Shown: piece after piece, positions 1,453 through 36,292 of the stretch | Position numbering within the stretch: the stretch's first letter is position 1 | How the letters are laid out: each line of letters opens with the position of its first letter | Source: a virus | Lineage: Duplodnaviria > Heunggongvirae > Uroviricota > Caudoviricetes | Direction: 5' to 3' (one strand) | Length of the DNA: 36,292 nucleotides | IMG/VR virus record: IMGVR_UViG_2877285697_000006 | Coordinates: 1 to 36,292 of that record | Made by a program: the position numbers and the translations under genes | Notes under the pieces: generated by a model | What the model saw: only the letters and a program-made list of their open reading frames with translations | Databases searched by the model: none | Told to the model about the DNA's origin: nothing

Positions 1453-1489
1453 GCCCCTATCGTTATAATACGCGGTAGGGGCGTTTTTG
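1453..1489 (+). terminator. hairpin (GCCCCT...AGGGGC) followed by GTTTTT
   Basis: 6-bp GC stem with long loop then T-run, after stop of 1019..1438. Confidence 0.35.
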
Positions 1490-1501
1490 TTTGGAAATGG
1501 T

Positions 1502-3181
1502 ATGAAAACTAAACTGTATTCGTATATTCGCTTCTCGTCTATGCGTCAGAATGATGGTTCGAGTTATGAACGACAAATCAGGATGGCTAGAGAGATTGCG
1601 GTAAAGTATGACCTTGAACTGGTAAATGATTATCAGGATCTGGGTGTATCTGCGTTTAAGGGTGCTAACTCCAAAACAGGGGCGCTATCTCGTTTCCTTG
1701 ATGCAATAGGTAGATCCGTTCCTGTTGGTAGCTGGCTATTCATCGAAAACTTGGACCGTTTATCCCGTGCCGATATTGTCAGTGCGCAGGAGTTATTCCT
1801 TTCAATCATCCGTAGGGGGATAACCATTGTTACTGGCATGGATAACAAGATCTACTCGCTTGATACTGTTACCGCTAACCCGATGGACCTGATGTTCTCC
1901 ATCCTTTTATTCATCCGTGGTAATGAGGAAAGCCAGACTAAGCGCAATCGTACTAACTCAAGCGCACTGATTAAGATTAAAGCTCATCAAGAAAATCCAC
2001 AAAATCCGGCTGTTGCAATCGAGGAAATTGGAAAGAATATGTGGTGGACTGATACCACATCTGGTTATGTGCTTCCTCATCCGGTCTTCTTCCCTATTGT
2101 TCAGGAAGTTGTGGAATTACGCAGGAATGGACGGTCAACCGCCGAGATACTGGATCACCTTAACGCGACATACACACCACCACCAGCCGCAAGTCACAAG
2201 AGGCATTCAAACTGGTCACGGGCAATGATTGAAAGGTTGTTCCATACCCGCGCTTTGATTGGTATCAAGGAAATCTCTGTAGATGGCGTTAAGTATGAGT
2301 TAAAGGATTATTATCCTCGTGTGCTAGATGACGCTGAGTTTTATCACCTTAAGAAAAGCATTGGTGTTAGAGCATGTAACTTTGGAGACAAAGAAGAAGC
2401 TAAACCTATTCCCTTGCTTAGTGGTGTTGGTCTATTGAAATGTGAACATTGCGGTTCCGCTATGGTTAAGGTGAAAGGAACAAACAGACGGCCTAACCAA
2501 TATCGTTATTCATGCGATGCAATGCGCTCTAGTCGTATTGAATGTGTGCATACAAACTGGAGTTTTCGCGGCGACCAATTAGAGAAAGCTGTATTGCAAT
2601 TGCTGGCTGATAAAATCTGGATTGCTGAAGATAAGGCTAATCCGGTTCCGGCTTTGAAAGTACAGATTGATGAAATATCACGCAAGATTGATAACCTGAT
2701 TACCCTTTCTGCTATGACAGGAGCAACGAAGGAGCTAGCCGATCAGATTACTACCCTCAATAGCGAGCGTGAAACACTCTACAATCAACTTAAGATGGCA
2801 GAAGAGGAAATGTATTCTGTTGACTCTCAAGGCTGGGAGAAGCTCGCAGAATTTGATTTAGAAGATGTTTACAACGAGGATCGCATTAAGGTCCGGTTTA
2901 AGATTAAGCAAGCTCTAAAACGGATCGGGTGTAGCAGGATTGACAAGTACAAAAACTTGTTTGTACTGGAATACATCGATGGCAAGACCCAGAGAGTTGT
3001 AATAGAAAATTCAAGAGGACCGAGGAAAGGCCGGATCTTCGTTGATTTGAAGACTATCAATGATAGGCAGATTCTGGAGAGTAACGGGCTTGTTCTGCAT
3101 CCATGTTTAGACATGCTGACAGATAAGAACTGGAAACCAGAAGAAGAAATACCAGGTCCATTACAAGAATTTGGAATTTAA
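1502..3181 (+). CDS. large serine recombinase (serine integrase-like)
   Basis: N-terminal resolvase-type catalytic domain (YSYIRFSSMRQ...LDRLSR), ~560 aa, zinc-ribbon CEHCG...YRYSCD...IECVH; start taken at MKTKLY rather than track start 1487. Confidence 0.8.
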   Translation: MKTKLYSYIRFSSMRQNDGSSYERQIRMAREIAVKYDLELVNDYQDLGVSAFKGANSKTGALSRFLDAIGRSVPVGSWLFIENLDRLSRADIVSAQELFLSIIRRGITIVTGMDNKIYSLDTVTANPMDLMFSILLFIRGNEESQTKRNRTNSSALIKIKAHQENPQNPAVAIEEIGKNMWWTDTTSGYVLPHPVFFPIVQEVVELRRNGRSTAEILDHLNATYTPPPAASHKRHSNWSRAMIERLFHTRALIGIKEISVDGVKYELKDYYPRVLDDAEFYHLKKSIGVRACNFGDKEEAKPIPLLSGVGLLKCEHCGSAMVKVKGTNRRPNQYRYSCDAMRSSRIECVHTNWSFRGDQLEKAVLQLLADKIWIAEDKANPVPALKVQIDEISRKIDNLITLSAMTGATKELADQITTLNSERETLYNQLKMAEEEMYSVDSQGWEKLAEFDLEDVYNEDRIKVRFKIKQALKRIGCSRIDKYKNLFVLEYIDGKTQRVVIENSRGPRKGRIFVDLKTINDRQILESNGLVLHPCLDMLTDKNWKPEEEIPGPLQEFGI

Positions 3182-5723: not shown

Positions 5724-8700
5724 TTAAGAAACAGTAATACCCGTAGTGGCTTTTTTAGTTACCATTACAGTTAAATCACTGATCCATGTGCTAGGCGTCC
5801 AGTTGTTGATTGCGCTTGATTGCACTTCAAAGGTCAAGGTCACAGCACCTTTACCCGCTGGCATATCAATAACACCTGAGTAAAGACCAGTATTACCGCC
5901 ATACGCCCTATTATACAACTCTGACCCATTCTTACGAACAATCAGGCGACAGGTGTCGTAATAGGTATTATTGTTCGACCCTTCACGCGCTCGCAATCCA
6001 CCAAAACTAATCGCCGGAATAACGATTTGACGATCGAACTTGTGATCATCTTCAACGCGAACGGTTACTGTACCTTGCGGATAGCCGCCATAACCATTAT
6101 CAACGTTAACATCACGGTGTGGGAACTTTCGACCAATCACCTTAACGAAATCACCCTTAACCTGAGTAGCTTCAAGCATACCCTTAATAACACAGCTAGA
6201 GTTAATCGTGACGTTGTTCAGAGTACCAGAATCAGCCGTGATATTACCTTTAACGGTAGCATTCATGAACGTAGCATTACCGTTCTTGTTGATATGCCAT
6301 CCGGTCGATCCGTTCCAGTTGGAAGACTGGATATAGTTACCGATTTTAGCGTTATCAATTGCGCCATTTACAATCTTGGCGTTGGTGATCGCGCCGTCTT
6401 GGATTTTCGCTGAATTGATCGCAGCATTGCCAATTTTAGCCGTGGTGATACTAGCATCAGTAATCTGTGCTGATCCGATTGAGGCATTACGAATCATCGC
6501 ATTATCGAGATAAACCTTGTTACCTTCGATACCAAACGGGCAAACATCGGTCCCGTTCTGCGGAGCTACAGCAATTTTATCAGCCGTAAAGATGATTTTA
6601 GTCGGTTGTGCCGGATCGTTGGTTGCGCTCATGTGAATACCAGCCACACGACCATCTGCATTAACTGCCAGATTGTATTTGCTGTTAATGGTTCCTTTCA
6701 AAGCATCGATTTTTACATCTGCTTCCTGATTCACACCAGCAATCTTGCCATCCATTTCTACCCGAACTTGATCAATCTTACTTGCGCTTGCTGCCTCACT
6801 GGTTGCAATTGCTTGTTTCAGGGTTGTAGCGGAGGCGCTAACTTCTTTGGTGATATCGCCTTTCAGTTCAGCTTTAACCTGATCAATCTTAGTTGAACTT
6901 GCCTTATCACCAGAAGCAATCAGACTCTTTAAGGTATCGGCTGAGGCTTGAACAGTTTTACCCGTCTCGGTAGTGATTTGCTTATGCATTGCATCAATTT
7001 TAGCATCGGCATTAGCGCCAGCTTGCTTAATAGCATCCGCGATAGTTTCATCTAAGCGATCTTGTAAACCAATCAGGTCTTCCAGTGCTTCTTTGTCCTG
7101 ATCGTCCCAACTAATCGTAGACTTCATTTGCATGAAATACGGTTCAGACCAAACAGCATCATCCATACCGAAAATATCGTAGTGAGCACCACGGATATAA
7201 TAATCACCGTCAGCAATATCAAAGGAAGTATGGCTAACACTATTCGTGCTTACTGCCCTTGCATCTGAGAAAGTGTTGTCGGTTGCATACTGGATGATTG
7301 ACCCTGCATAGTCATGTTCTACGTCATCCGCCCAGCTAACAAACGCAGTATTAAAGCCACCACGCGCACTAAAACCTTTCATTGGCTTATGTTGTGGGTT
7401 GATAGCCACTAAACGCGCTGGGGCGCTCTCTGAGTTGTTATAGCCCTTAGCTGATACTTCTACCGTAAGTTGACGCGAAAGGCCGTTAAACTGGTTCATA
7501 TCAAGCGTATAAGTCCATGATTCAGGATCGCGGGTACGGTACTGAATAGACTTACCAGCCTTGTTAGTCACCTTGATAATGTATGCTTCAAACAGGTCAC
7601 TAAACTTGTTAGTTTCACCGTTGATCATCACATCTAATTGTTGCTGGTTTTCCCATTCGATAATCAGATCATTACCTTCGAAAGTTCCTGGCGTGCTACC
7701 CTGATTTTTGATTCGAATAACCGGAGTCGGCAATTCATAGGTAACGGTAGGATTCTGGTTAACCAGTTCTACCCAATCGGATCGCGCGATGATACCGAAA
7801 GCACAAACTCGGTAATCGTAGGAACGATCTTTTGCCAGTGCATTGACACTGAAAATTTGCTGTGAAGTCTGTCCCAGCTTAATCCAGTTAGGTGATCCGC
7901 TTACACGGTAATCAATCTGGAAACCATAACGGTTAAAATCTTCCGGTGCATCCCATGTCAAAGTAACGTTTTTACCGTAAATCGTCTCACCAGTTGCCTT
8001 AATTCTGAAATTAGTAGGCTTCTGTACTGTCATTGAATCCGGTAAACCACTTGGTCTATTGTCTGGAGTTGCCGCATAGTTCAGGTCAGTATAAACCTGA
8101 GAATTATATTCTGTGGCGGTGATAGTCATCATCCCAGCAATACCAGAATCAATCGAGCGATCAATTGCAGTAATACGCCATAAGGAATTATTCAGCTTCA
8201 ATTCATCATAGGTTACGCTGATAACGTCCCAAACTTCGGCAGTGAATGCGTCAGTAGTCATAAAGCTGATAACCTGAGTGATACGAGATTTATTTCGCTC
8301 AATGCTCGCGAGTTTATCAATCTGATCTTTAGACTTAACGAAACGATATTCTACATCCTTAGCAATAATTCGACCATCTGCGCGAACAGTAGCATCGTTT
8401 TCAGCATCAGCCGGATAACGTAGCATTTGCTCTGAATAGTCAATTGATGGTTCTTGATACATCGCGTTAATGGTATTGAAATAACCGTTAGTGCCACCTG
8501 TTTTCAGTGATACCTTACCCATCATGATATTGTCTTCATTGAAGGTATGCTTAACAATATCAGGAGCATCCAGTTTCAGCGTAATACGTCCAAAGGATTC
8601 GAACATCACCCCGCCGAAAGTCTGCATAAGATTAGTCAAGTTCTCTTTAAAGCTGGCGTTCGGATCACATGCACCGTTTGAATGTAGATCCATCTGGCGT

Positions 8701-9965: not shown

Positions 9966-10619
9966 TTATTTCTTCGATGAATGCCACTTGCTTTCTGATT
10001 GCCAGCGACCCGCCCTTGAGAAGAATAGATCGTTCTCGTTTCCGGCGTATGATCGGTGGATACCATCGGAGGCATGACTACGAGCGTTTTTATCTAGAAC
10101 TTCCCAGATACTATTAAGCTGAAATTCTGATTCGTTTTTACACTCATCATCTTCATGTTCGATGTTAATCCCGATGGAATCGACTACCCCACGGAAAACA
10201 GGGTAAGTTGTTTCAACCTTGCCCGTGTTGGGGTTAAGGAATACCATTTCGATTTTCACATCTGATTTATCGAATTGCTTATTACGAATGAGAGTAATGT
10301 ATTCCTCGCGAACGTTAGAAACGGTTACGTTAATCCCGTTGTTGTTGATCTCCTTCTCTTCGGTATTCGATGAGATTTGAAGAAAATCGCCCGTTGCGAG
10401 ATATGTAAATCCGTTATAGTCCAAATCGAAATACCCATCTGTAAGCCGTAGAACGTCCCCTGACGCTGTTATCACTTCGATAATGTGAAACATCGATCCA
10501 GTGGAAAAAAGCTGCGGTAGCGTCAATCTAGACACGTTCTGACCTGTCTGGTCGTTGTAGACCTCGATGAAGTCCAGATTAGTGCATAGTTTGCTGAATG
10601 ATTCCTGAATAGTTGCCAT
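9966..10619 (-). CDS. minor tail protein, gpL-like
   Basis: Position after M-like gene; ATG overlaps upstream stop (TAATG); start at MATIQ. Confidence 0.45.
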   Translation of the reverse strand: MATIQESFSKLCTNLDFIEVYNDQTGQNVSRLTLPQLFSTGSMFHIIEVITASGDVLRLTDGYFDLDYNGFTYLATGDFLQISSNTEEKEINNNGINVTVSNVREEYITLIRNKQFDKSDVKIEMVFLNPNTGKVETTYPVFRGVVDSIGINIEHEDDECKNESEFQLNSIWEVLDKNARSHASDGIHRSYAGNENDLFFSRAGRWQSESKWHSSKK

Positions 10620-20980: not shown

Positions 20981-21940
20981 TCATTCGCCGATCTGGAGAA
21001 CTTTAAGAGCTTCCGGCTGTACTACAGTGAAGTCAATGTCCAGCCAGATTCTAGGCACGATCGCAGACTGGGCGCGGTACGTTGAATCGTCCAGATCTAG
21101 CTCAAGACCGCCCCACTCACCGATCATGATGCCGCTGTAATCGCCCAGCACGATCGTGTCAGCTGGAATAACACCGGAAGTAATTACATCGTAACCAGCC
21201 AGTTTGCCGTTTTCGATGATATAACCGGAAACGCCGTTATCTTTCAGGGTAGATTCCAGTTCAGCAGCAGTTGCACCGCTCATTGCAAACTTGATGGACT
21301 GTGCCGGAACGCCAGCGTCCGTAAGCTGAGCAATCTCCTTGAGGAAGTCTTTGTAAGAGAAAGCGGCTTTCTTAGTAACGCGACCACCGTCTACCAGTTG
21401 CTTAACCAGACCTTTCGGACCGCGCTCGTTGTCTTTGTCAGACAGAATCAGTTGTTCCAGTTTGATCCGAACAGATTTGTTAATGTGATCAGTGATCAGG
21501 GTAGCGATGCCCGGAACGGTTTTGAGGCTAGCCCTAGAAATTGGGTTCCCGCCTGCGAAAGTTTTCGGAGCCATTTTCACGTTTTCAAAGCTAGCCTTCG
21601 ATTCGGGGGCACTTCCATTTTCATCAACAAAACCAAAGGCTTCGACGCTGGAAGCAGTCATTTTTGGTACTGCAATCGGGCTATTCAGACCAGACAGAAC
21701 AGTCACACCCAGACGACCCAGAACAGACTGTGGAAGCAGCATTTCAACATAGGATTCGGTCAGCAGTTTTTCGTCGGTTACAGCTTCCAGAGTAGCTTTG
21801 GTGTTACCAGCAGAAGCAGCACGCAGAGCAGCAGCCGGAACGAATACAGAGCCACCACGAGCAGCACCGACCACGCTGCATTGCAGCACCAGCAGCCATT
21901 GCGGAATATTCAGCTTCATGAGCACCCAGAGTTTCACCAT
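20981..21940 (-). CDS. major capsid protein (HK97 fold); N-terminus probably supplied by the upstream protease-scaffold ORF
   Basis: 319-aa ORF with strong codon bias and capsid-like sequence; no SD before its ATG; MCP frame has a TGA immediately upstream. Confidence 0.75.
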   Translation of the reverse strand: MVKLWVLMKLNIPQWLLVLQCSVVGAARGGSVFVPAAALRAASAGNTKATLEAVTDEKLLTESYVEMLLPQSVLGRLGVTVLSGLNSPIAVPKMTASSVEAFGFVDENGSAPESKASFENVKMAPKTFAGGNPISRASLKTVPGIATLITDHINKSVRIKLEQLILSDKDNERGPKGLVKQLVDGGRVTKKAAFSYKDFLKEIAQLTDAGVPAQSIKFAMSGATAAELESTLKDNGVSGYIIENGKLAGYDVITSGVIPADTIVLGDYSGIMIGEWGGLELDLDDSTYRAQSAIVPRIWLDIDFTVVQPEALKVLQIGE

Positions 21941-22985
21941 CGATCAGGGAGCGGAATACGTTGTTCAGGTCAAAAGTTTTTTCCATGATTTGTTCCTTAT
22001 TAATTTGTTCGTTATTACGTTGAGCATTGATAATGTTATTTAGTGCCTTAGTGCGGAATGCTTCCGGCGTCATGTCTTTAACTGCCAATGCGCGTTTTAA
22101 TTCTTCGTCGTCAATATTTAGTTCCCGCGCGATCTCGCGAATTTCTAATTCGTCTTCTTCGGAACGTTCAGCCACTTCTTCGATTTTTTCTTCTTCAACC
22201 GGAGCGGCTTCACGTTCTTCTTTTACTTCTTCTGCTTCCCGAACAGTTGAACTATCATCATCAACACTTTCAGGATGTTCAGCGACTTTTCCGTCTTCGA
22301 GATTTTCATTTTCTTCATTCTCTTCAACTTGGCGCTCTTGAGTTTCTTCAACTTTCGGTTCTTTATTTTCTTCTACCGGAGTTTCTTCAACCTGAGCGGG
22401 TTCTTGTTCTTCTTTGATTTCTTCGATTTGTTCTTTAGTCATATCGCGTTTAGCCTCCAAATTAACTGTGATAGTATTTAGAGAGCGATTTAAACCGACC
22501 GTATCGTCAGCAGGAACGGTAACGAAACTTAATTCGTATGGTGCCCACTTAGTAACAATCAATTGCCCTTTGGCGTAATCGATGTGATATTCTTTAATGT
22601 CATAGCCGACAGAAATTTTTTCCATCGTACCTTCAATGACTTTATTACGAACATCATTAGCCAAAGTGCCATGTTTAGAGAATTTAACCAGAGCACGGCC
22701 TACGTTATCCGCATCGATTCGAGCGTCGCAGACTACACCTAAATGATTATCGAAATTATGATTGAACAGCAACGGAGCGTTATTATTCAGACGAGACAGA
22801 TCAACCGCTTCCGGTGTATGTACCAGAATTTCATCTAATACCACCATTTCTTGATTTTGCTCATCCCAAAATTGGCGCTGATAAGGCTGTGTACTTGAGA
22901 AAGCAATTTCAAATTCGTATTGATCGTTATGCCCTTCGTTAATAACTCCACCGTAACCGTTAAGATCGCGGCGAAATTTAAGCAT
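21804..22985 (-). CDS. prohead protease (HK97 S78-type) fused to acidic coiled-coil scaffold domain
   Basis: N-terminal ~180 aa with LLFNHNFDNHLG-type protease motifs, then glutamate-rich region; 3' end (RCCSWWLCIRSGCCSACCFCW) looks like out-of-frame translation of the MCP start. Confidence 0.7.
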   Translation of the reverse strand: MLKFRRDLNGYGGVINEGHNDQYEFEIAFSSTQPYQRQFWDEQNQEMVVLDEILVHTPEAVDLSRLNNNAPLLFNHNFDNHLGVVCDARIDADNVGRALVKFSKHGTLANDVRNKVIEGTMEKISVGYDIKEYHIDYAKGQLIVTKWAPYELSFVTVPADDTVGLNRSLNTITVNLEAKRDMTKEQIEEIKEEQEPAQVEETPVEENKEPKVEETQERQVEENEENENLEDGKVAEHPESVDDDSSTVREAEEVKEEREAAPVEEEKIEEVAERSEEDELEIREIARELNIDDEELKRALAVKDMTPEAFRTKALNNIINAQRNNEQINKEQIMEKTFDLNNVFRSLIDGETLGAHEAEYSAMAAGAAMQRGRCCSWWLCIRSGCCSACCFCW

Positions 22986-25119: not shown

Positions 25120-27024
25120 TTAGAACGATGTTACCCAGCTACGGCCTCTGTTTGGGCGTCTGGCGACGTTTTGACGTTGTGGTCGTGTGATTGGCTTAGT
25201 TTCTTCTATTTGCTCGTTAGATTGCGATTTAGGAGCTTCTACGGATTCTTCGACAACACGGTTTAAGCTGTCTTTCATTGCAATGAGTTTATCCCATGAC
25301 ATTTTTGAAAGAACGTAGCGAGAAGCCGCTGTAGCATACACGGCGCAGTCGAGCGCCTCGTTCCTAACGCCTGGGTTCTTTACCCACCTCACGCCAGTAG
25401 TAGTACGCTTAACAGATTCACTTAAAAGCTGATCGAGATAATCATCAGGAACGGTGTCTGATATTTCTAAGCCAATATGAGGATTATCTTTCAGGTTCCT
25501 AGCCAACATTTCACGAAATGCAGTTTTACCCACGTTAACGCCCAGCATAAGCAATTCATGACCACCTGTGCGGGTAGGTTTAACCGGAATGATCGGAGCG
25601 TTACCAGCAGAACTACCTTTGATAGCGTGTAAGTTCTTCCACTTGCCGCAAATACGGTATCCAGCTTGAGTGAATCGACCGTTCGATGTATCAAGGAAGC
25701 TGGCGAGCATAGGAACACGATCACCCGATACAGTAGTAAATTTGGTTTTATGGAAGTTGATTAATCTATCCCATACAGGGGATTCATATCGTTCACAGTT
25801 ATGATCGTAAAAGCTGCGATGATCCAGAATATAAATCTTATCCTTTGCCACGCCCATGATCGTAGTTTCTGCGCGATCTAATTGCTGGTCAGTACCCGCA
25901 CACAAGAAAATCACGTCATCAGGGATATTCTCGATAGAAACATCTGTTTTGAGTTGTTCCAGTTCATTTGCTTCTACTGCCGTGTCCTGATCGTCGTATA
26001 CCTTGCCTAACACGGTGTTAAAAAAGGATTGTAAATCAAAGGATTGCCACGCATGACTAAAATCAACCACACAAGCGCGAATCGTGCTGAAAGGTGAATA
26101 CAGACGACTGATCCAGAATCCGGCTACTTCACTTTCACGGGTTGCTCTCCACTCGCCTTGTGCTACTGCCCTGATTCGTTCCCCTTCTGTCCATGCGTTC
26201 TTACAGTGGGGGCAAATATAACGAGCGGTATCAGGATCGGGTAAGTTCTTACCATCAATGTTACGCCATTCAAATTGAACGTTTTCCCACTCGATCACCT
26301 GGTGTTCCCCGCAATGCGGACACGGAACAAAAAACATACGCATGTCGCTTGATAACCATTGCTGGTTAATGCTTCCCAGCTTACTGGTCGGGGTACTGGA
26401 TACGACTAATCGGCCTTCATCGCCAAAGGTAGTTAAACGGTTAGCAGCCAGTGCCACCGGATCACCTTCTTCTGAGGCTGTAGCAGCATCGATTTCGTCA
26501 AGCAATCCAACCTTTGCGGTCTTACCACGTAGGGTTGATGGACTGGTAAGCGATACCATGTACAGGAAGTGATTCGTTTTTAGCTGTAGCTGGTTATTGT
26601 TGTTAACCGCATTGCGATCATTCTTGTCTGTAACCACGTCTTTTAATGCATCACATGCTTCGATAGACGGTCGGATCTTACCCGCGAGATATTGAGACAT
26701 TTCTTTAGCGGTTGATTGTCCGATAATCATATTGCATGGATCGTTAGCCATCTGGTTAAACAGGATGCCGTTCAGGATGGTAGTCTTTCCGATCTGCGCA
26801 CTGGTCATCAGAACATACTTTTTCTTGTTCTCAAGGAAAGGAGCATCAATCATGCCTTTCTGGAATGACAGTAATTTAACTTTATCCCCCGCTTGAGGAC
26901 CATCTACCAGCACCATATTAGCTTCGCACCATTCAGAAGGAAGGAGCTTAGGCGGTGGAGTGATATATTTTGCGGCATTTTTAAGAATCTTTTTTAATTT
27001 TGCCTTATTTGAAATCAGTTTCAT
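25120..27024 (-). CDS. terminase large subunit, lambda GpA-like
   Basis: 634 aa; ATPase P-loop region (TSAQIGKTT), zinc/nuclease-like CPHCGEHQ...CPHCKNAW; SD GAGGGT. Confidence 0.85.
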
Positions 27025-29784: not shown

Positions 29785-30360
29785 AGTGGAATCCTCTAAA
29801 AGAAAGTGAATCAAAGTAATTCTGATATTATTTATAAGAGAAAATTCTTGATGATTTTGGAAGGGATGGATTCAGTCGGCTTCGCCTCCTTCATAGATTT
29901 GATTAAAAGACCAGCAAACGTAACTCGGATCTTATAGTTAATATAGTTATCTTTGAAGAAATAATAATCAGGAAGCAATTTCAGCAACCGCAGGTTGCGA
30001 TCCCGAAGGGATAACCAATACCTTTCTAGAAAGTGATTGTTACTCACTTCGTTCGTTTACTAGAATCAGTTATCATCTAGTATTAAATCCCTTTCTAAGA
30101 AAATCCTTTCAAAAGTGAGTGAACGCCGTAGGCGTGAACGTGAGCGAAGCGAACTATCCAATCCCTTTCGAATCCTGCTTGCAGGTCTTAGAAGGTGTTG
30201 GTGGGCGCTACGCGCACGGCTACGCCGTATTCTTTTTGCGAGATCTTTCTTGAACGTAGTGAGAGAAAGCGAGCAAAAAGGAGAACGTTAGTTCGAATTT
30301 TATATTCTATGGTCTGTGGGGTATAATCCCTTTCAAGATCATGCACTTACGTTATTGAAG

Positions 30361-30460
30361 TGTAGGGTTAGTGTAGGTGTGTAGGTTTCATAGAGTAGGT
30401 TTACTGGCTAGTGTAGTGTAGGCCAATCCCTTTAAAGTGTAGGTGTGTAGTGTAGGTTTT
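30361..30460. repeat. cluster of about 7 direct GTGTAGG(T) iteron-like repeats
   Basis: Same-orientation repeats within 100 bp in a noncoding region, followed by an AT-rich stretch. Confidence 0.55.
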
Positions 30461-30654
30461 CTATCAAAATTTTTGACAAAAAATTCTTGTATATTATTTA
30501 ACCAAAAAATCACCAAAAAGCGGCGTAAACTCATGATTTAAAAGTGATTTTCAAAAGATCTCCGTGCCATAATAGGTTATAAAGGTTGATAATCATTATC
30601 TGCCATTTTCAAACAAAAATTTTGATACACTTTTCTCGCTTAGGTCATGGGCAT

Positions 30655-30682
30655 TGACAAGTGTCAAGAACTATTTTATACT
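30655..30682 (+). promoter_or_regulatory. strong sigma70-like promoter (TTGACA - 16 nt - TATACT)
   Basis: Consensus -35, near-consensus -10; -35 embedded in palindrome TTGACAagTGTCAA. Confidence 0.6.
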
Positions 30683-31026
30683 TTTTCTCACTGGTAGGGG
30701 TTGAAATTTTCCAAACAATCCCCATATAGATGATAAGCATGATTTTTTCGTGTATAAATACATGCATGAAAAATGATTGTTCACTTCTGAAAACCTCCTG
30801 ACTCACTGTTAACTCATACAGCACTGGTTAGATACACAGTGCTTTTTCGGTTGAATATTGTACGGATTGATTAATTATTAATCTTCTCTTTAGCAATTCG
30901 TGCTCCCACTGATCGGATATACAGTGGTTTTACAGAGTTTTTGAAAATCATTTTTATAAATAGAATTGTTCAGAGCGAAAAGCTCTTTTTAAAGAAATCA
31001 TTATTCCAGATTTAGGAGGATTCAAG

Positions 31027-31209
31027 ATGGCACGACCTGTTAAGTTCACTCGTGAAATCGTTTTAGAAATGGCAAAGCGTTATTTTGAACTGACACCTGA
31101 TGTAGTGATGGGTGATTGGTTTAAAGGTGAAGGCATTGATCAATCAACCTTCCATAAACTTTTAAAGAAGTATGAAATTCGCGTAAAGATTACCGCCGAG
31201 GTGTGGTAA
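31027..31209 (+). CDS. small DNA-binding-like protein (60 aa), paralog of 27746..27979
   Basis: SD AGGAGG upstream; MARPVKFTRE... aligns with the 77-aa protein. Confidence 0.45.
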   Translation: MARPVKFTREIVLEMAKRYFELTPDVVMGDWFKGEGIDQSTFHKLLKKYEIRVKITAEVW

Positions 31210-31250
31210 TAACCTTTGACTGAGAATTATATGATGGCTTTAAAAATAAA

Positions 31251-31281
31251 AAGCCTCCCTGTTGGCGCAAGGAGGCTTTTG
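31251..31281 (+). terminator. hairpin terminator (AGCCTCC...GGAGGCT + TTTT)
   Basis: 7-bp stem, 12-nt loop, short T-run. Confidence 0.5.
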
Positions 31282-31325
31282 ATATGAACAATTAAAACTA
31301 ACACAGCATTCAGGAGTATTTATAA

Positions 31326-32327
31326 ATGAAAAATTCTAAGCGCATCACCTTCAACCTGTTCATTAAATCCAACGGCAAACTGAACATTACCGTTATGGAA
31401 GGTAAAGCAAGCAAACAAGACAAATCCTTTGAAGTAGTTTCCGGTAAGACTCTGACCGAAATGCGTCAAAATGCTGGCATCAAAGACGGTGCTGAATGGC
31501 AGATCACTAACCGTTTCGACAAACGTCACGTTAAACCTACACTGGTAGAAGGTGAATCCGTTTATTGCTTCGCTCGTGCTGTTAAAGCCGATGAGACTTA
31601 CTATCTCGCTGTTATTAAAACTGCTTCCGGCTTCCGTGCTGTAATGCATCACAAGAGCAAGCGTAACGAATACGGCGTAGAGACCCAGGAAGTTGCAAAA
31701 CGCTTCCGTACTGTTGCTACTGAATCCACTGTAAAGGATGTTTCTGGTACTGTTAACACCGCTAAAGGCGGTTCCTTCTACAACCACGCATTACAGGTTA
31801 CTTCCTCCTTCTTCTGCAAAAAAGAAGCTGTGAAAGAAGTTGCTCCGGTAGTAGTTGAAGAAGTTAAAGAAGAAGTTGCAGTGGTTGAATCTTCCGAAGT
31901 TGAAGCACTGAAAGCACGCATCGCTGAACTGGAAGCTGAAAACGCATCTCTGAAAGCTGAACTGGCAGCACAGGAAACCACTTTCGAAGTAGCAGCGGTT
32001 GAAGTTGAAGCAGTTGAAGAAAAATCCATTGATGAAGAACTGGAAGAACTCCTTAACTATCGCTGGGGTAACGGTGAAGAAGTAGAACAGGAAGAACAGA
32101 AAGAAGCTGATCCGGTAGTAGTTCCGGTTGAAGCAGAATCCGCACCAGTTACTAACTTTGAAACACTGCGCAATAACTTTATGGCTAAATTCAAAACTAG
32201 CTGGGAAGATACCGAAGAAGAACAAGAAGAGATTGATGTAAACGAAGACGAGATCCGCGAAGCACAGATGGCACTGCATGACGCTATCTATGACACCAAC
32301 TACAGCGCCTACGCATACGCAGCTTAA
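31326..32327 (+). CDS. highly acidic protein with coiled-coil segment (333 aa), function unknown
   Basis: Strong high-expression codon bias; SD CAGGAG; glutamate-rich C-terminal half. Confidence 0.6.
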   Translation: MKNSKRITFNLFIKSNGKLNITVMEGKASKQDKSFEVVSGKTLTEMRQNAGIKDGAEWQITNRFDKRHVKPTLVEGESVYCFARAVKADETYYLAVIKTASGFRAVMHHKSKRNEYGVETQEVAKRFRTVATESTVKDVSGTVNTAKGGSFYNHALQVTSSFFCKKEAVKEVAPVVVEEVKEEVAVVESSEVEALKARIAELEAENASLKAELAAQETTFEVAAVEVEAVEEKSIDEELEELLNYRWGNGEEVEQEEQKEADPVVVPVEAESAPVTNFETLRNNFMAKFKTSWEDTEEEQEEIDVNEDEIREAQMALHDAIYDTNYSAYAYAA

Positions 32328-32342
32328 TAGAGGGGTGAATCT

Positions 32343-32585
32343 ATGATGAATCAAAACAAAGAATTTCTGGGTAACTTGATGTTAGAAATTATCAAAATGA
32401 AAGAAAGAATGGTAGCGATGGAATCAGAGATTAAAACTCTTAAAGCTGATAATAAGGCGTTGAGAAAGTCCTTAAAGCTGATTGATGAGACTAATGCGGT
32501 TATGATGGATCATGTATTTCCTGAGTGGCGAAATGAAACTAAACCTACACAACATAAGAAACCTACACTTCGAATTGTTGCATAA
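32343..32585 (+). CDS. small coiled-coil protein (80 aa)
   Basis: ORF; followed by two stable CGAA-loop hairpins. Confidence 0.5.
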   Translation: MMNQNKEFLGNLMLEIIKMKERMVAMESEIKTLKADNKALRKSLKLIDETNAVMMDHVFPEWRNETKPTQHKKPTLRIVA

Positions 32586-32868
32586 AAAAGGGACTCCGAA
32601 GAGTCCCTAGTAAGTTTAGGTTAGGTTTGCACAACAAAGATGAGGTTATAATGAACATAATGCTACATTATTCTTTAAAGCCAGAAAAATAACCGCCCCG
32701 AAGGGCGGGAGGATTAATACTCAATCTATACTTGTTATGTTTTTATGATGTATAGATCACTGACTATGAAAACACTGTACTGGAGTGTGTTTTATGGCTT
32801 TTAATCGGGAACTCTCTTTCGAAAATTCCCTGTTAAAACCACATAAGGAGAAAAGGCAGATTACAATA

Positions 32869-33042
32869 TTATTTAGTGTCTGATTTACAGCAACTAAAAA
32901 GAATAAACAAGATTAAGCATACCCAGCCGTAAGGCGTACCGATTAGAAATTTGAAAAACACCACCAGCGATATAAAAATCAATTTAATGCCAGCGACGAT
33001 AGTCAAAAACAGCAGAGTAGCGAAATAGACAAAAAGATCCAT
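32869..33042 (-). CDS. small two-TM membrane protein (57 aa), holin-like topology
   Basis: Not in ORF track; SD AAGAGGA upstream of ATG at 33042; two hydrophobic helices. Confidence 0.3.
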   Translation of the reverse strand: MDLFVYFATLLFLTIVAGIKLIFISLVVFFKFLIGTPYGWVCLILFILFSCCKSDTK

Positions 33043-33095
33043 AGATAATCCTCTTTGAAAACGACCATCATCTATAGTTCAATTCATCGATTTAA

Positions 33096-33197
33096 TTAAT
33101 GATACTTGTAAGCATTACACACAGCAGAAATGCCAATATGTGCCAGTGAATATACGATAGTTAATCCTACAGCCAGATAAATCAAAAATTCAACCAT
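33096..33197 (-). CDS. small single-TM peptide (33 aa)
   Basis: SD GAGGA upstream of ATG at 33197; the longer track ORF 33096..33365 is a chimera that runs into the IS. Confidence 0.2.
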   Translation of the reverse strand: MVEFLIYLAVGLTIVYSLAHIGISAVCNAYKYH

Positions 33198-33241
33198 AGG
33201 TAAATCCTCAAATAAGAAAAAGGTTAGCGGGGGGTGATTCC

Positions 33242-34535
33242 CTGAGGAATCCCCAGAAAACAAGACAGGCATAGTGAGATGTGATCTAATTGATTGTGCT
33301 AACAATTTCAAGGAGATCACCACTATGCCTGCACGTTCATTATGCCAAAATTTCCTTAACAACATACTGGCCCCTTTGCATCTTTACCGTCAAAAATCAC
33401 TGATTGACGCAACTAATGCTGTAATAAATGGCGCTTCCCTCACACTTACCAGTATCGGGCGTCATTTAACCGGTACGGCATCAGTTAAAAACAAAATAAA
33501 GCGGGTGGATCGACTGTTGGGGAATCGACATTTGCAAAATGAGGTTTCCACCATTTTTCAGCGAATTACCCAAAAGATTACGCGGGGAATGTCTCGTGTT
33601 GTGATACTCATTGACTGGAGTGCTTATCATGCCTCTCGTTTTCAGCTTTTGCGGGCAAGCCTGGCATGTGACGGGCGTTCTTTACCGTTGATGAGTTGTG
33701 TCGTTCCATCATCACAGACAGCGAATGCAGATGTACATGAGCGTTTTCTGGAATCGCTTGCTGAGTGCTTTTCCCCCGGGACTGATGTCATTGTTATTAC
33801 AGATGCCGGTTTTCAGGGGCGATGGTTCCAACAGCTCCGCTCCCGTGGCTGGACCTATATTTGCCGGGTACTGGGCAATCATTATTACAATGTTGGTAAT
33901 GGCTGGGAAAAGGTGTCGGACTCAGGCACAAAAGCATCAACGACAGCAATTTATTTAGGTGAAGGCCTGCTGGGTCGAGATAAAAATGCACAACATGAAG
34001 GGCATTTTTATCTTTATAAAAGTAAGCCTAAAGGTCGTAGATTTAAACGCTCGAAGGAAAGAGCAACCAGACCATCGGTGACGGCTAAAGCTCGTACTGC
34101 CGGGAAATCACCATGGTTTATTTTCACAAACAGTACTGAGTTATCGCCAAAACAGGTAATGAAATTATACAGCCGTAGAATGCAAATTGAGCAAAATTTC
34201 AGGGATGAAAAAAATCCTCGCTGGGGATTTGGACTACGGTTTGGTGCCAGTCATTCATCCGGGCGGGTCACGGTATTGAGTCTGAGCGCAACATTAGCCA
34301 GTATCATTATGTGGTTAAGCGGTTTCAGCCTGGAAAACAAAGGGATACATCATAAATATCAGGCAAATACAGTGAAGCACAGGCGAGTCATCTCGCTATT
34401 AAAACTGGCGGAGAATGTGATTCGACATTCTCCACTCATACTAAACACACTGTCACTTGACGCAGGGCTGAAAGTTCTACAGCAACGGTATACCAATATG
34501 ATAATGGTTTACTAAATTTTCTGGGGATCCCTCAG
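33242..34535 (+). mobile_element. IS10-like insertion sequence (IS4 family), about 1.29 kb
   Basis: Terminal inverted repeats CTGAGGAATCCCCAGAAAA (left) and CTGAGGGATCCCCAGAAAA (right, reverse complement), 19/19 with 1 mismatch; flanking direct repeat GGGTGATTCC at 33232-33241 and 34536-34545 (9-bp TSD with 1-bp ambiguity). Confidence 0.85.
33325..34515 (+). CDS. IS10-type DDE transposase
   Basis: N-terminal region ...KNKIKRVDRLLGNRHL closely matches the IS10 transposase as recalled (IKRIDRLLGNRHL); SD AAGGAG; start at MPARSL rather than track start 33274. Confidence 0.85.
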   Translation: MPARSLCQNFLNNILAPLHLYRQKSLIDATNAVINGASLTLTSIGRHLTGTASVKNKIKRVDRLLGNRHLQNEVSTIFQRITQKITRGMSRVVILIDWSAYHASRFQLLRASLACDGRSLPLMSCVVPSSQTANADVHERFLESLAECFSPGTDVIVITDAGFQGRWFQQLRSRGWTYICRVLGNHYYNVGNGWEKVSDSGTKASTTAIYLGEGLLGRDKNAQHEGHFYLYKSKPKGRRFKRSKERATRPSVTAKARTAGKSPWFIFTNSTELSPKQVMKLYSRRMQIEQNFRDEKNPRWGFGLRFGASHSSGRVTVLSLSATLASIIMWLSGFSLENKGIHHKYQANTVKHRRVISLLKLAENVIRHSPLILNTLSLDAGLKVLQQRYTNMIMVY

Positions 34536-34599
34536 GGGTGATTCCCCCCGTAGACGTTGACCAGCTCAACATCTTTCATACATTTATTTATAACGCGCT

Positions 34600-35154
34600 T
34601 TAAGACACATCAAATTCATCGTCTTCTTCTGGTTCTTGTTCCGGTTCATCCATTAATGGTAATTCTTCTTCCTCGTCTTCTCCCAAATCTGCATTTTCGA
34701 ACAAGTCCCCTACTTCATTTAAACGACGCTCGATAATCTCTCTTAGCTTATTCTTCAATGTTTTCTGATCAGTGGCGGATTCTAAAATTTCTAAAGCATC
34801 GATCGTACAAATCTGCAAAATAGTCTGTTTCACTTTCCCGCAGTATTCCGCTAGTTCCTGTTCTACATAACCGACAGGAATCAGGAGATTCATTTTTTCC
34901 TGGTTCTCTCGTTCGGCTGCATCTGCCATTGCTCTTTCTCTGCGGAGACGTTCTTGATCAATCGCTTCTTTGATTGAAGTTTGTTTAAGTGGGTTAATTA
35001 CGTTCTTTAGCACCCAATCGCAACCTTCCTTTGCCGGAACACGCCTCGTATTGGTATTGTAAGGTAGTCCCCTTTCTAACCATCGCTTACCGCCACCATT
35101 CAATGAATAGCCATATAAACGGGAAATTTCTGTAAGGGTTAATTCTTCTTTCAT
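34600..35154 (-). CDS. terminase small subunit candidate (Nu1-like DNA-binding protein)
   Basis: N-terminal HTH-like LTEISRLYGYSLNGGGKRWLERGLPY, coiled coil, acidic C-terminal tail; SD GGAGGA; candidate cos-like GC island upstream. Confidence 0.45.
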   Translation of the reverse strand: MKEELTLTEISRLYGYSLNGGGKRWLERGLPYNTNTRRVPAKEGCDWVLKNVINPLKQTSIKEAIDQERLRRERAMADAAERENQEKMNLLIPVGYVEQELAEYCGKVKQTILQICTIDALEILESATDQKTLKNKLREIIERRLNEVGDLFENADLGEDEEEELPLMDEPEQEPEEDDEFDVS

Positions 35155-35269
35155 TGGTTATCCTCCATTAAATTTGCGTAATTTTATTTATTGGTTTTAC
35201 GCAAAATCTAAGCGCCTAAATCGCATTCTAACGAAGGGAAAGATCCAGTAATGGTAAGGGCTGGGAAGT

Positions 35270-35305
35270 GGGTTAATAGTCGCGTAGCGACCGCGCTAGG
35301 ACTGC
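35270..35305. other. GC-rich island in AT-rich leader upstream of terS-like gene, candidate cos region
   Basis: GTCGCGTAGCGACCGCGCTAGG; contains GCGACC as in the lambda cohesive end recalled from memory. Confidence 0.2.
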
Positions 35306-35512
35306 ACTGATCACGTTTTAAAATCTCACACGCACATCAAATACCGGGGTGCCGAAAACTCCCTTTATTTCATCCGTGGAACAGTACCTTTTTAATTTGT
35401 CAAGCATTAATTTCTTAATTTAATTACTAAATCTCATCCCAATAATTGAAAAAATATCAAAAATCAATAAAGTAAGCATCTAAAAGTCAGTCCATACCAA
35501 AAGAGGTATAAA

Positions 35513-36292
35513 ATGAAAAACATTATCGCTGCTATCGTTCTTTCTGCTACTGCTTTCGGTGCTAATGCTGCGTCCTTTGATTGCACTAAGGCTACTACCA
35601 AATCAGAGAAGTTTATTTGTGCTAATGAGTCAATCTCCGCACTGGATTCGAAACTTCATGAAGTATATGTTAAGGCTGTTAAGATTGATCCGTCTCTTAA
35701 ACAAGAGCAACGCAACTGGAATAAAACTGTTCGTGATACAATGATCAATATCGGGCAGATTCAGCCACTGGAGGCTGTATACAACGCTCAAATCCAAAAC
35801 TTGATGAATGTATTATCTAAAGAAGAAACCGCGTCAGAGAGCGATTCAGAGACTTCTGCGAAGATTGAAGAAGAACAACCGAAACAGGAAGAAGTAAAGA
35901 AACTGAATGTTACCGCGATTTATGCATGTACTACAAAATTTACATGGAAAGTTATCGATGGTGAGGAAACAGAAGCTGTAAAAGATAAACTCTACGGAAA
36001 CAAAACTTTTGATAATAACGGCGGTAAACTTAAGATCAAAATGGTAGACGATGTTCCTGTATCTTTTGTGTATTCCGACAAGTATGATGTTTATAAATCA
36101 AGTCTCAAGCCATCTAAAGAGAATCCAAACGCAATGGAAGGTAAATCCAAACAGGATGCTATTGGACGTGTTAACACTTATAACATCTGGGTAAGCAAAA
36201 AAGGTGACATGCGTCTTGAAGTAATTGAACCAAAATTTGATTCTGAATATAAACACACTCAATTTGCATGTGACATGGTAGACGCAGAGTAA
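35513..36292 (+). CDS. secreted DUF1311/LprI-like protein (259 aa)
   Basis: Signal peptide MKNIIAAIVLSATAFGANA then ASFDCTKATTKSEKFICANESISALDSKLHEVY, fitting the LprI N-terminal domain pattern. Confidence 0.6.
   Translation: MKNIIAAIVLSATAFGANAASFDCTKATTKSEKFICANESISALDSKLHEVYVKAVKIDPSLKQEQRNWNKTVRDTMINIGQIQPLEAVYNAQIQNLMNVLSKEETASESDSETSAKIEEEQPKQEEVKKLNVTAIYACTTKFTWKVIDGEETEAVKDKLYGNKTFDNNGGKLKIKMVDDVPVSFVYSDKYDVYKSSLKPSKENPNAMEGKSKQDAIGRVNTYNIWVSKKGDMRLEVIEPKFDSEYKHTQFACDMVDAE

Follow-up and report, generated by a model that had tools for sequence, protein, structure and literature searches.

What placed an insertion sequence (IS) within a G/C palindrome of a prophage genome, and how would it affect the genes around it? 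The window analysed here is the whole of a 36,292-nucleotide stretch of viral DNA (IMG/VR record IMGVR_UViG_2877285697_000006). A preliminary description had placed in it an intact, IS10-like element, flanked by a duplicated target and sitting in the loop of a hairpin that was taken to be the terminator of a terS-like gene. From the evidence set out below, it is very probable that the element is a copy of ISEc60 that lies at a preferred target, a hot-spot palindrome, inside a prophage operon comprising terS and small open reading frames (ORFs).

The element has the following parts.

33242..34535, plus strand: ISEc60 (IS4 family, IS10 subgroup), intact, 1,294 bp, with 99.8-99.9% full-length nucleotide identity to annotated copies
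33242..33260, plus strand: left terminal inverted repeat CTGAGGAATCCCCAGAAAA, the same 19-mer as at the ends of other ISEc60 copies
34517..34535, minus strand: right terminal inverted repeat CTGAGGGATCCCCAGAAAA (minus-strand reading), containing a GATC
33266..33331, plus strand: stem-loop of the transposase leader, in which both the Shine-Dalgarno sequence and the ATG are paired (two inverted repeats; RNA fold)
33325..34515, plus strand: transposase gene, 396 aa, with DDE and YREK motifs (Pfam DDE_Tnp_1; NCBIfam transpos_IS4_2)
34408..34435, minus strand: terminator-like hairpin within the IS on the terS strand (consensus match only), which would meet transcription entering from terS

A query of 1,296 bases matched copies annotated as 'IS4-like element ISEc60 family transposase' over its whole length at 99.8-99.9% identity, on plasmids of Shigella dysenteriae, E. 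coli and E. albertii and on E. coli chromosomes. Judged by this nucleotide identity, the element at 33242-34535 is ISEc60, a catalogued Escherichia/Shigella insertion sequence whose name is that of ISfinder as applied by the NCBI PGAP annotation. The copy itself shows no difference from the known element, and only its insertion site is new. Full copies are uncommon (15 of 5,426 complete E. coli genomes), and the element occupies up to 36-38 places each in strains FDAARGOS_943 and FDAARGOS_944. Its terminal inverted repeats are 19 bp long with one mismatch, imperfect as first described; the repeat finder had returned arms at 33240-33260 and 34517-34537, 95% complementary, which come to 19 bp once flank-derived bases are removed.

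The ATG at 33325 is the start assigned by PGAP in reference ISEc60 copies and yields a protein of 396 aa, which is 100% identical by tblastn to a copy on a Shigella dysenteriae plasmid. The homology that a transposase should have is evident from matches to Pfam DDE_Tnp_1 (E 3.8e-20) and NCBIfam transpos_IS4_2 (356 bits, cutoff 152). Members of the IS4 family are recognised by a DDE triad and a Y-(2)-R-(3)-E-(6)-K motif (PMC2266710). Residues D97, D160 and E289, together with Y282, R285, E289 and K296, are invariant in a four-way alignment with ISSfl1, IS10A and IS421, and the element further encodes its transposase in one ORF, with no frameshift, ends in inverted repeats and is flanked by a 10-bp duplication, close to one helical turn. 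The IS is thus intact, as originally reported.

Sequence identities of the transposase by tblastn and/or the four-way alignment are 51-52% to ISSfl1, 35-35.8% to IS10A and 23% to IS421, the tblastn match to IS10A (35.8%) having an E-value of 4e-63 and 93% coverage. With 35.8% identity to IS10A against 23% to IS421, and with transpos_IS4_2 scoring above IS4_1 (46 bits), the protein groups with IS10 rather than with other subgroups. The IS10 subgroup is characterised by a length of 1,200-1,350 bp, 5′-CT ends and a 9-bp direct repeat (De Palmenaer et al., Table 1, PMC2266710). At 1,294 bp, with ends that read CTGAGG... and with this similarity to the IS10A transposase, the element can fairly be called IS10-like at the subgroup level. 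Its direct repeat departs from the 9 bp of the subgroup: five copies, this one among them, have 10 bp and a sixth has 11 bp.

RNA folding of the transposase leader gives -37.9 kcal/mol (z -6.2), and the predicted stem-loop would block translation of transcripts that enter from outside the IS. In IS10, fold-back inhibition operates through a leader structure that hinders translation of read-in transcripts. No match to RNA-OUT or to any other Rfam family was found over 32500-35300 at E <= 1, hairpins included.

The insertion site is composed of two copies of the target and the parts of a divided palindrome, none of which is assigned to a strand.

33232..33241: left copy of the target duplication GGGTGATTCC, 10 bp, perfect repeat
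34536..34545: right copy of the target duplication GGGTGATTCC, 10 bp, perfect repeat
33229..33241: left part of the split palindrome (G6 + TGATT + CC)
34546..34549: remaining CCCC of its right arm

The junctions read ...AAAAAGGTTAGC GGGGGGTGATTCC / CTGAGGAATCCCCAGAAAAC ... TTTTCTGGGGATCCCTCAG / GGGTGATTCCCCCC GTAGACG... in the window, where slashes mark the joins. Removal of the IS and one repeat copy restores GCGGGGGGTGATTCCCCCCGTAGAC, a perfect GGGGGG-TGATT-CCCCCC palindrome, as had been proposed. Insertion into a hairpin is thereby borne out, but not insertion into its loop: the staggered cuts fall within the stem (GGG/GGG ... CC/CCCC), and each repeat copy holds the whole loop plus parts of both arms. 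Comparison with IS-free relatives leads to the same structure, since five related prophages (L153, L163, L164, L165 and L167) carry the identical empty site, GGGGGG-AATCA-CCCCCC in the orientation of terS.

The region 3′ of terS was compared across 26 relatives, comprising chromosomal and IMG/VR prophages, and in all 26 the terS strand carries a tandem pair of hairpins. The G/C hairpin occurs as a G6-AATCA-C6 allele (five empty and four occupied sites), as a G5-AGAACAT-C5 allele (17 sites) and as a third allele, in L161, with a G5/C5 stem and an inverted loop. The other hairpin lies just upstream on the terS transcript.

34552..34574, minus strand: conserved hairpin GAUGUUGA-loop-UCAACGUC (RNA fold)

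It is kept in 24 of the 24 sequences compared, two of which show a compensatory A-U to G-C change.

The DNA around the element belongs to a prophage. PHROG matches identify a serine integrase at 1487-3181 on the plus strand; tail fibres, a tape-measure protein, a capsid/protease gene and a portal gene on the minus strand; a terL of the lambda gpA type (25120-27024, minus strand); and a Rha/Ant-like regulator. The DNA flanking the IS has matches on the chromosomes of 63 out of 5,426 complete E. coli genomes and on no plasmid. In FDAARGOS_946, a collinear element of 35.3 kb splits the hicB gene and separates its two halves, and ISEc60 has no match among 50,697 records of a phage collection; both observations sustain the earlier suggestion of a prophage. 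The window is the whole prophage of a lineage integrated in hicB, trimmed at gene boundaries. This lineage appears to have no close cultured or isolated phage, as its structural module has no nucleotide match in the phage collection (50,697 records) and the best terL match there is only 44% identical. Without the IS the prophage would measure 34,988 bp, as against the 36,292 bp of the window. The predicted addition of about 1.3 kb is therefore accurate (1,304 bp), but the suggested burden on packaging would be slight, since relatives span 35.0-36.0 kb. Independently of the IS, the prophage may be defective if a capsid frameshift is not a sequencing error: a capsid/protease fusion gene, 669 aa in a relative, is broken in two here by a single additional G at about 21868.

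The genes and terminators on either side of the palindrome are all on the minus strand.

34600..35154, minus strand: terS-like gene, 184 aa (PHROG 57, terminase small subunit, E 1.2e-11)
33096..33197, minus strand: hydrophobic ORF, 33 aa, conserved, preceded by the ribosome-binding site GAGGA and lying about 30 nt past the G/C hairpin
32869..33042, minus strand: hydrophobic ORF, 57 aa, conserved
32589..32708, minus strand: pair of hairpins resembling canonical intrinsic terminators, each next to a T-run (32708-32693 and 32608-32589)

The assignment of the neighbouring gene as terS-like holds, with the PHROG 57 match spanning residues 24-169 of 184; the protein has no Pfam or NCBIfam match. The gene does not stand beside terL as an adjoining and co-oriented terS would, as terL is about 7.5 kb away with plus-strand genes between them. 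Downstream, the 33-aa ORF is open in 17 of the 18 relatives with its allele (L004 was missed by the search anchor), and the remaining eight relatives have a 94-aa membrane-protein allele in its position. The 57-aa ORF is full length and open in 18 relatives, with 93-100% amino-acid identity. None of the 33-, 57- and 94-aa proteins has a match in Pfam or PHROGs. A strong ribosome-binding site and an ATG follow about 30 nt past the G/C stem in every relative, and the pair of canonical terminators, some 500 nt beyond the G/C hairpin, is also present in the IS-free locus L153.

One alternative, which we consider unlikely, would make the hairpin the intrinsic terminator of terS and the landing of the IS there a matter of chance. 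In its favour, the stem is strong, with 6-7 G-C pairs: CGGGGGG-AAUCA-CCCCCCG is predicted in both the minimum-free-energy and the centroid folds, which gives the GC-rich stem-loop of a terminator, with T-rich sequence (CTTTTTCTTATTT) after it on the terS strand. However, the terS strand past the stem reads GCUAACC and only then UUUUUCUUAUUU, so that the T-run begins 7 nt past the stem instead of within the 0-2 nt of an intrinsic U-tract. A terminator scan did not call the G/C hairpin in IS-free L153 or in the window, and found the two canonical sites downstream in both. Furthermore, the conserved ribosome-binding site and membrane ORF about 30 nt past the hairpin leave no room for a promoter, and the two canonical terminators come after the small ORFs; those at 32708-32693 and 32608-32589 are likely to be the true end of the terS/small-ORF unit. 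The best reading of this arrangement is a single transcription unit of terS, two hairpins, small membrane ORFs and terminators, in which the G/C palindrome most likely forms an internal stem-loop and not a terminator. The view of the hairpin as the terS terminator, as put forward initially, does not fit its position within this conserved unit. Both hairpins may have a part in processing, stabilising or attenuating the transcript, and the G/C hairpin, with its GC-rich stem and T-rich sequence 7 nt on, could still act as a pause site or a partial terminator.

The other half of this alternative, a chance landing, can be judged from where else the element has inserted. In the literature on ISEc60 no paper on its target was found, judging by title and abstract. 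Public contigs were scanned for the ISEc60 end pattern and the IS421 end, and flanks were scored for a motif of GGG at -15 to -8 plus CC at the junction. Flanks whose ends are at least 93% identical to ISEc60, de-duplicated by sequence only and drawn from public assemblies that may share ancestry, carry the motif in 25 of 31 unique cases, against 0.8% of 20,000 random positions from the same loci; this enrichment excludes chance. Among the unique IS421 flanks, 59 of 75 have it. Many other matches of the 19-nt end pattern came from unrelated or longer elements; their flanks, for example the recurrent CCCTCACCC...CCCTCTCCC-ACAGGG or ACTCAGGCATAACGGATAATCACCATCATC, may be part of the element itself and were left out of the target analysis.

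Six paired ISEc60 copies, including the one in the window, restore a G-run, a spacer and a C-run, with a duplication of 10 bp in five and 11 bp in one; the restored sites include GCGGGGTTTCCCCCGC, GCGGGGTAGGCCCCGC and CGGGGGAATTTTCCCCGC. Sites restored for IS421 typically have the form CGGGG-N6-CCCCG, and their duplications are 10-11 bp long. The ISEc60 target thus approximates (C)GGGG-N3-5-CCCC(G), and the spacer preferred by IS421 is about 2 nt longer. For IS186, SaiSree et al. in 2001 reportedly gave the target consensus as (G)>=4 N3-6 (C)>=4, and the consensus of IS231A is said to be GGG(N)5CCC. Our flank data, from which the IS186/IS421 target was derived here with 75 unique flanks, agree with both. 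Within the prophage lineage, the G6-N5-C6 allele is occupied in 4 of 9 sites and the G5-N7-C5 alleles in 0 of 18 (Fisher p = 0.007, for sites that are not phylogenetically independent). The choice of site reflects the target preference of ISEc60 and is not an accident.

The same palindrome has also received a second element. In three sister prophages (L002, L003 and L004), found in the genomes EC416, PSJ-07 and E275a, it holds IS421, of the IS186 type, with a duplication of GGGTGATTCC (10 bp) in L002 and L003 and of GGGGTGATTCC (11 bp) in L004. One further site is common to both elements, holding ISEc60 in L008 and IS421 in L202. As the preferences of ISEc60 and IS186/IS421 are nearly the same, the palindrome is a recurrent hot spot.

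Repeated occupancy might instead result from selection, for silencing of toxic small membrane proteins or for crippling of the prophage, or from one ancestral insertion spread by recombination; we regard this, too, as unlikely. The three IS421 copies have the same sequence and the same orientation, as a single origin would predict, and those in L002 and L003 could stem from one ancestral event; the downstream ORFs, for their part, encode very hydrophobic peptides without an assigned function. Given the identity of the three copies, only the difference between the 10-bp duplications of L002 and L003 and the 11-bp duplication of L004 argues for independent IS421 events. Against both versions, two unrelated elements occupy the same site, and each shows the motif at many unrelated loci. 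The small ORFs, moreover, are intact in all four occupied prophages (57-aa ORF in L002-L004; 33-aa ORF in L002 and L003, L004 being missed by the search anchor). Finally, that the IS is an assembly artefact, a repeat misplaced at a homopolymer-rich site, is hardly credible: assemblies often go wrong at IS elements and at G/C homopolymers, but both junctions are clean, a misjoin would not create a duplication, and the one found here is perfect and has the characteristic 10-bp length and motif.

The favoured explanation, insertion of ISEc60 at a preferred target, can be put as follows. The host prophage is integrated in hicB, by a serine recombinase. ISEc60 would have moved by the cut-and-paste DDE mechanism that its homology suggests; this mechanism is established for IS10 and IS50. 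The element landed in the G6-TGATT-C6 palindrome between the terS-like gene and the two small membrane-protein ORFs, where the palindrome fits its target preference and where staggered cuts 10 bp apart gave rise to the GGGTGATTCC duplication. The element is oriented antisense to terS within the terS/small-ORF unit, so that the insertion probably splits the operon and would uncouple the small ORFs from terS transcription. Consensus matching revealed no promoter facing outward from the left end of the IS; together with the antisense orientation and the terminator-like hairpin within the element, this makes a loss of terS-driven small-ORF expression likely.

In sum, ISEc60 at this palindrome is a known element that has made a routine insertion at its characteristic target. 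What is mildly new is that an element of the IS10 subgroup shares the target logic of IS186, and that the prophage palindrome is a hot spot for both. The proper annotation is ISEc60 with a 10-bp duplication; the prophage around it is probably defective. Its targets, of the form GGGG-N3-5-CCCC and often terminator-like hairpins, set it apart from IS10 in spite of their common subgroup, and a target preference and hot spots shared with IS186/IS421 should help to predict where such elements land and which operons they split. The prophage lineage in hicB is itself of some interest, being without a cultured relative. Neither the target behaviour of ISEc60 nor this lineage touches a long-standing open question.

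A more speculative reading, possible but to be held with some doubt, is that the two-hairpin module is functional and its G6-N5-C6 form acts as an IS trap; that ISEc60 and IS186/IS421, two distantly related lineages of the IS4 family, have reached nearly the same target geometry; and that the polarity of the palindrome has flipped between ISEc60 and ISSfl1, from GGGG-N-CCCC to CCCC-N-GGGG, with terminal repeats almost unchanged. If true, this would provide a small natural system for studying how IS10-type transposases read target DNA.

Among known systems, IS10/Tn10 resembles ISEc60 in its 5′-CT ends, a similar terminal sequence (CTGAGGAATCCCC in ISEc60), a length of about 1.3 kb and a single DDE/YREK transposase. 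As in ISEc60, a GATC is present in only one end of IS10, and the leader structure that masks the start codon of ISEc60 resembles IS10 fold-back inhibition. The two elements differ in their targets, a GGGG-N-CCCC palindrome for ISEc60 and NGCTNAGCN for IS10, and in that the ISEc60 region has no RNA-OUT match in Rfam. They also differ in the length of the duplication, 10 bp for ISEc60 compared with the 9 bp tabulated for the IS10 subgroup (PMC2266710).

ISSfl1, from the Shigella flexneri virulence plasmid, is the closest named relative, with a transposase identity of 52% and nearly identical terminal repeats. In contrast to ISEc60, however, the ISSfl1 copy examined has inserted into GCCC-TGAA-GGGGC, whose polarity is reversed, and is flanked by a 9-bp duplication; most flanks of ISSfl1-like ends read CCCC-N4-5-GGG.

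IS186/IS421 shares with ISEc60 a nearly identical target logic (CGGGG-N6-CCCCG), a 10-11-bp duplication and two sites of insertion. Its 5′-CA ends (CATAAGCGC...) are unrelated to those of ISEc60 and it belongs to another IS4 subgroup, the IS421 transposase being 23% identical and falling into NCBIfam IS4_1 rather than IS4_2. Lastly, IS231A of Bacillus thuringiensis, set beside ISEc60 by its description, reportedly has a similar GGG(N)5CCC-type target, but differs in its subgroup (IS231), its 5′-CAT ends and its Gram-positive host. Its duplication, at 10-12 bp (PMC2266710), is similar to the 10 and 11 bp found for ISEc60.

The palindrome downstream of the terS-like gene is not occupied by ISEc60 only. 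In three sister prophages, from E. coli genomes originating in Japan, Ecuador and Chile, the very same palindrome is filled by IS421/IS186, an IS4-family element of another subgroup (L002:4446-5784, L003:4442-5780 and L004:4159-5497). These three IS421 copies are identical to one another, and their target duplications measure 10 bp in two genomes and 11 bp in the third. A second genomic site, ...GCGGGGAAAATTCCCCCGT..., is likewise shared by the two elements, on different contigs:

L008:4259-5552, ISEc60 at the second shared site
L202, right junction near 7583, IS421 at the second shared site

ISSfl1, the closest named relative of ISEc60, and ISSfl1-like elements have terminal repeats nearly alike to those of ISEc60, whereas their target palindromes are of the opposite polarity. 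Most flanks of these related ends contain CCCC-N4-5-GGG, and one ISSfl1 copy lies in the target GCCC-TGAA-GGGGC with a duplication of 9 bp. The loci concerned are:

L277:169-1469, ISSfl1 or ISSfl1-like element
L012, L019, L029, L031, L035, L058 and L075, further ISSfl1 or ISSfl1-like loci

Further elements carrying the 19-nt end pattern of ISEc60 were found at L007, L013, L015, L016, L025, L026 and L106, with one end recovered per locus; the end sequence CTGAGGAATCCCCAGAAAATAGAC is common to six of these seven, and L106 has another. Because their flanks are similar to the initial half of an intrinsic terminator (as in AAAAAAAACCCCCGTTAGGG at L013), these elements are suggested to have inserted into terminator hairpins.

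The hairpins on the 3′ side of the terS-like gene vary among relatives. In the related prophage L161 (~611-627, terS orientation), the G5/C5 hairpin has the loop ATGTTCT, which is exactly the common AGAACAT loop reverse-complemented; the interior of this palindrome appears to have been inverted. Immediately upstream of the G/C hairpin is another conserved hairpin, in which two relatives (L152 and L173) show a compensatory change from A-U to G-C:

34552-34574, minus strand, second conserved hairpin

The prophage lineage to which the window and its relative L175 belong encodes a serine recombinase, is integrated in hicB and is present in 63 of 5,426 complete E. coli genomes; no close cultured phage was found for it, the best terL match being 44%. 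The terS-like gene (34600-35154) is not directly upstream of terL (25120-27024) but lies ~7.5 kb away, with plus-strand genes intervening. L175 has an additional NUMOD3-domain gene of ~0.84 kb flanked by tail genes (L175:25863-26636), which is absent from the window (junction near 9970) and may be a homing-endonuclease-type insertion. Over its initial ~385 nt (35507-35893), the LprI-family gene shares 96-98% identity with a hypothetical gene from RB49-like phages of the T4 type (Krischvirus), whereas the phage collection gave no hit for the remainder of the searched region 30000-36292. The similarity suggests that a temperate prophage and virulent myoviruses have recently exchanged DNA. In the FDAARGOS_946 prophage the capsid/protease fusion gene is intact (669 aa); the window has one more G at ~21868 (within 20981-22985, minus strand), which breaks the gene into overlapping ORFs of 393 and 319 aa. 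The extra G is either a real frameshift, in which case the prophage is defective, or a sequencing error.

ISEc60 has a GATC inside its right terminal repeat and none in the left, and GATC sites also fall within its transposase leader stem:

33283-33286, GATC site
33314-33317, GATC site
34526-34529, GATC site

IS10 is under Dam control, and the placement of these sites in ISEc60 is reminiscent of that regulation.
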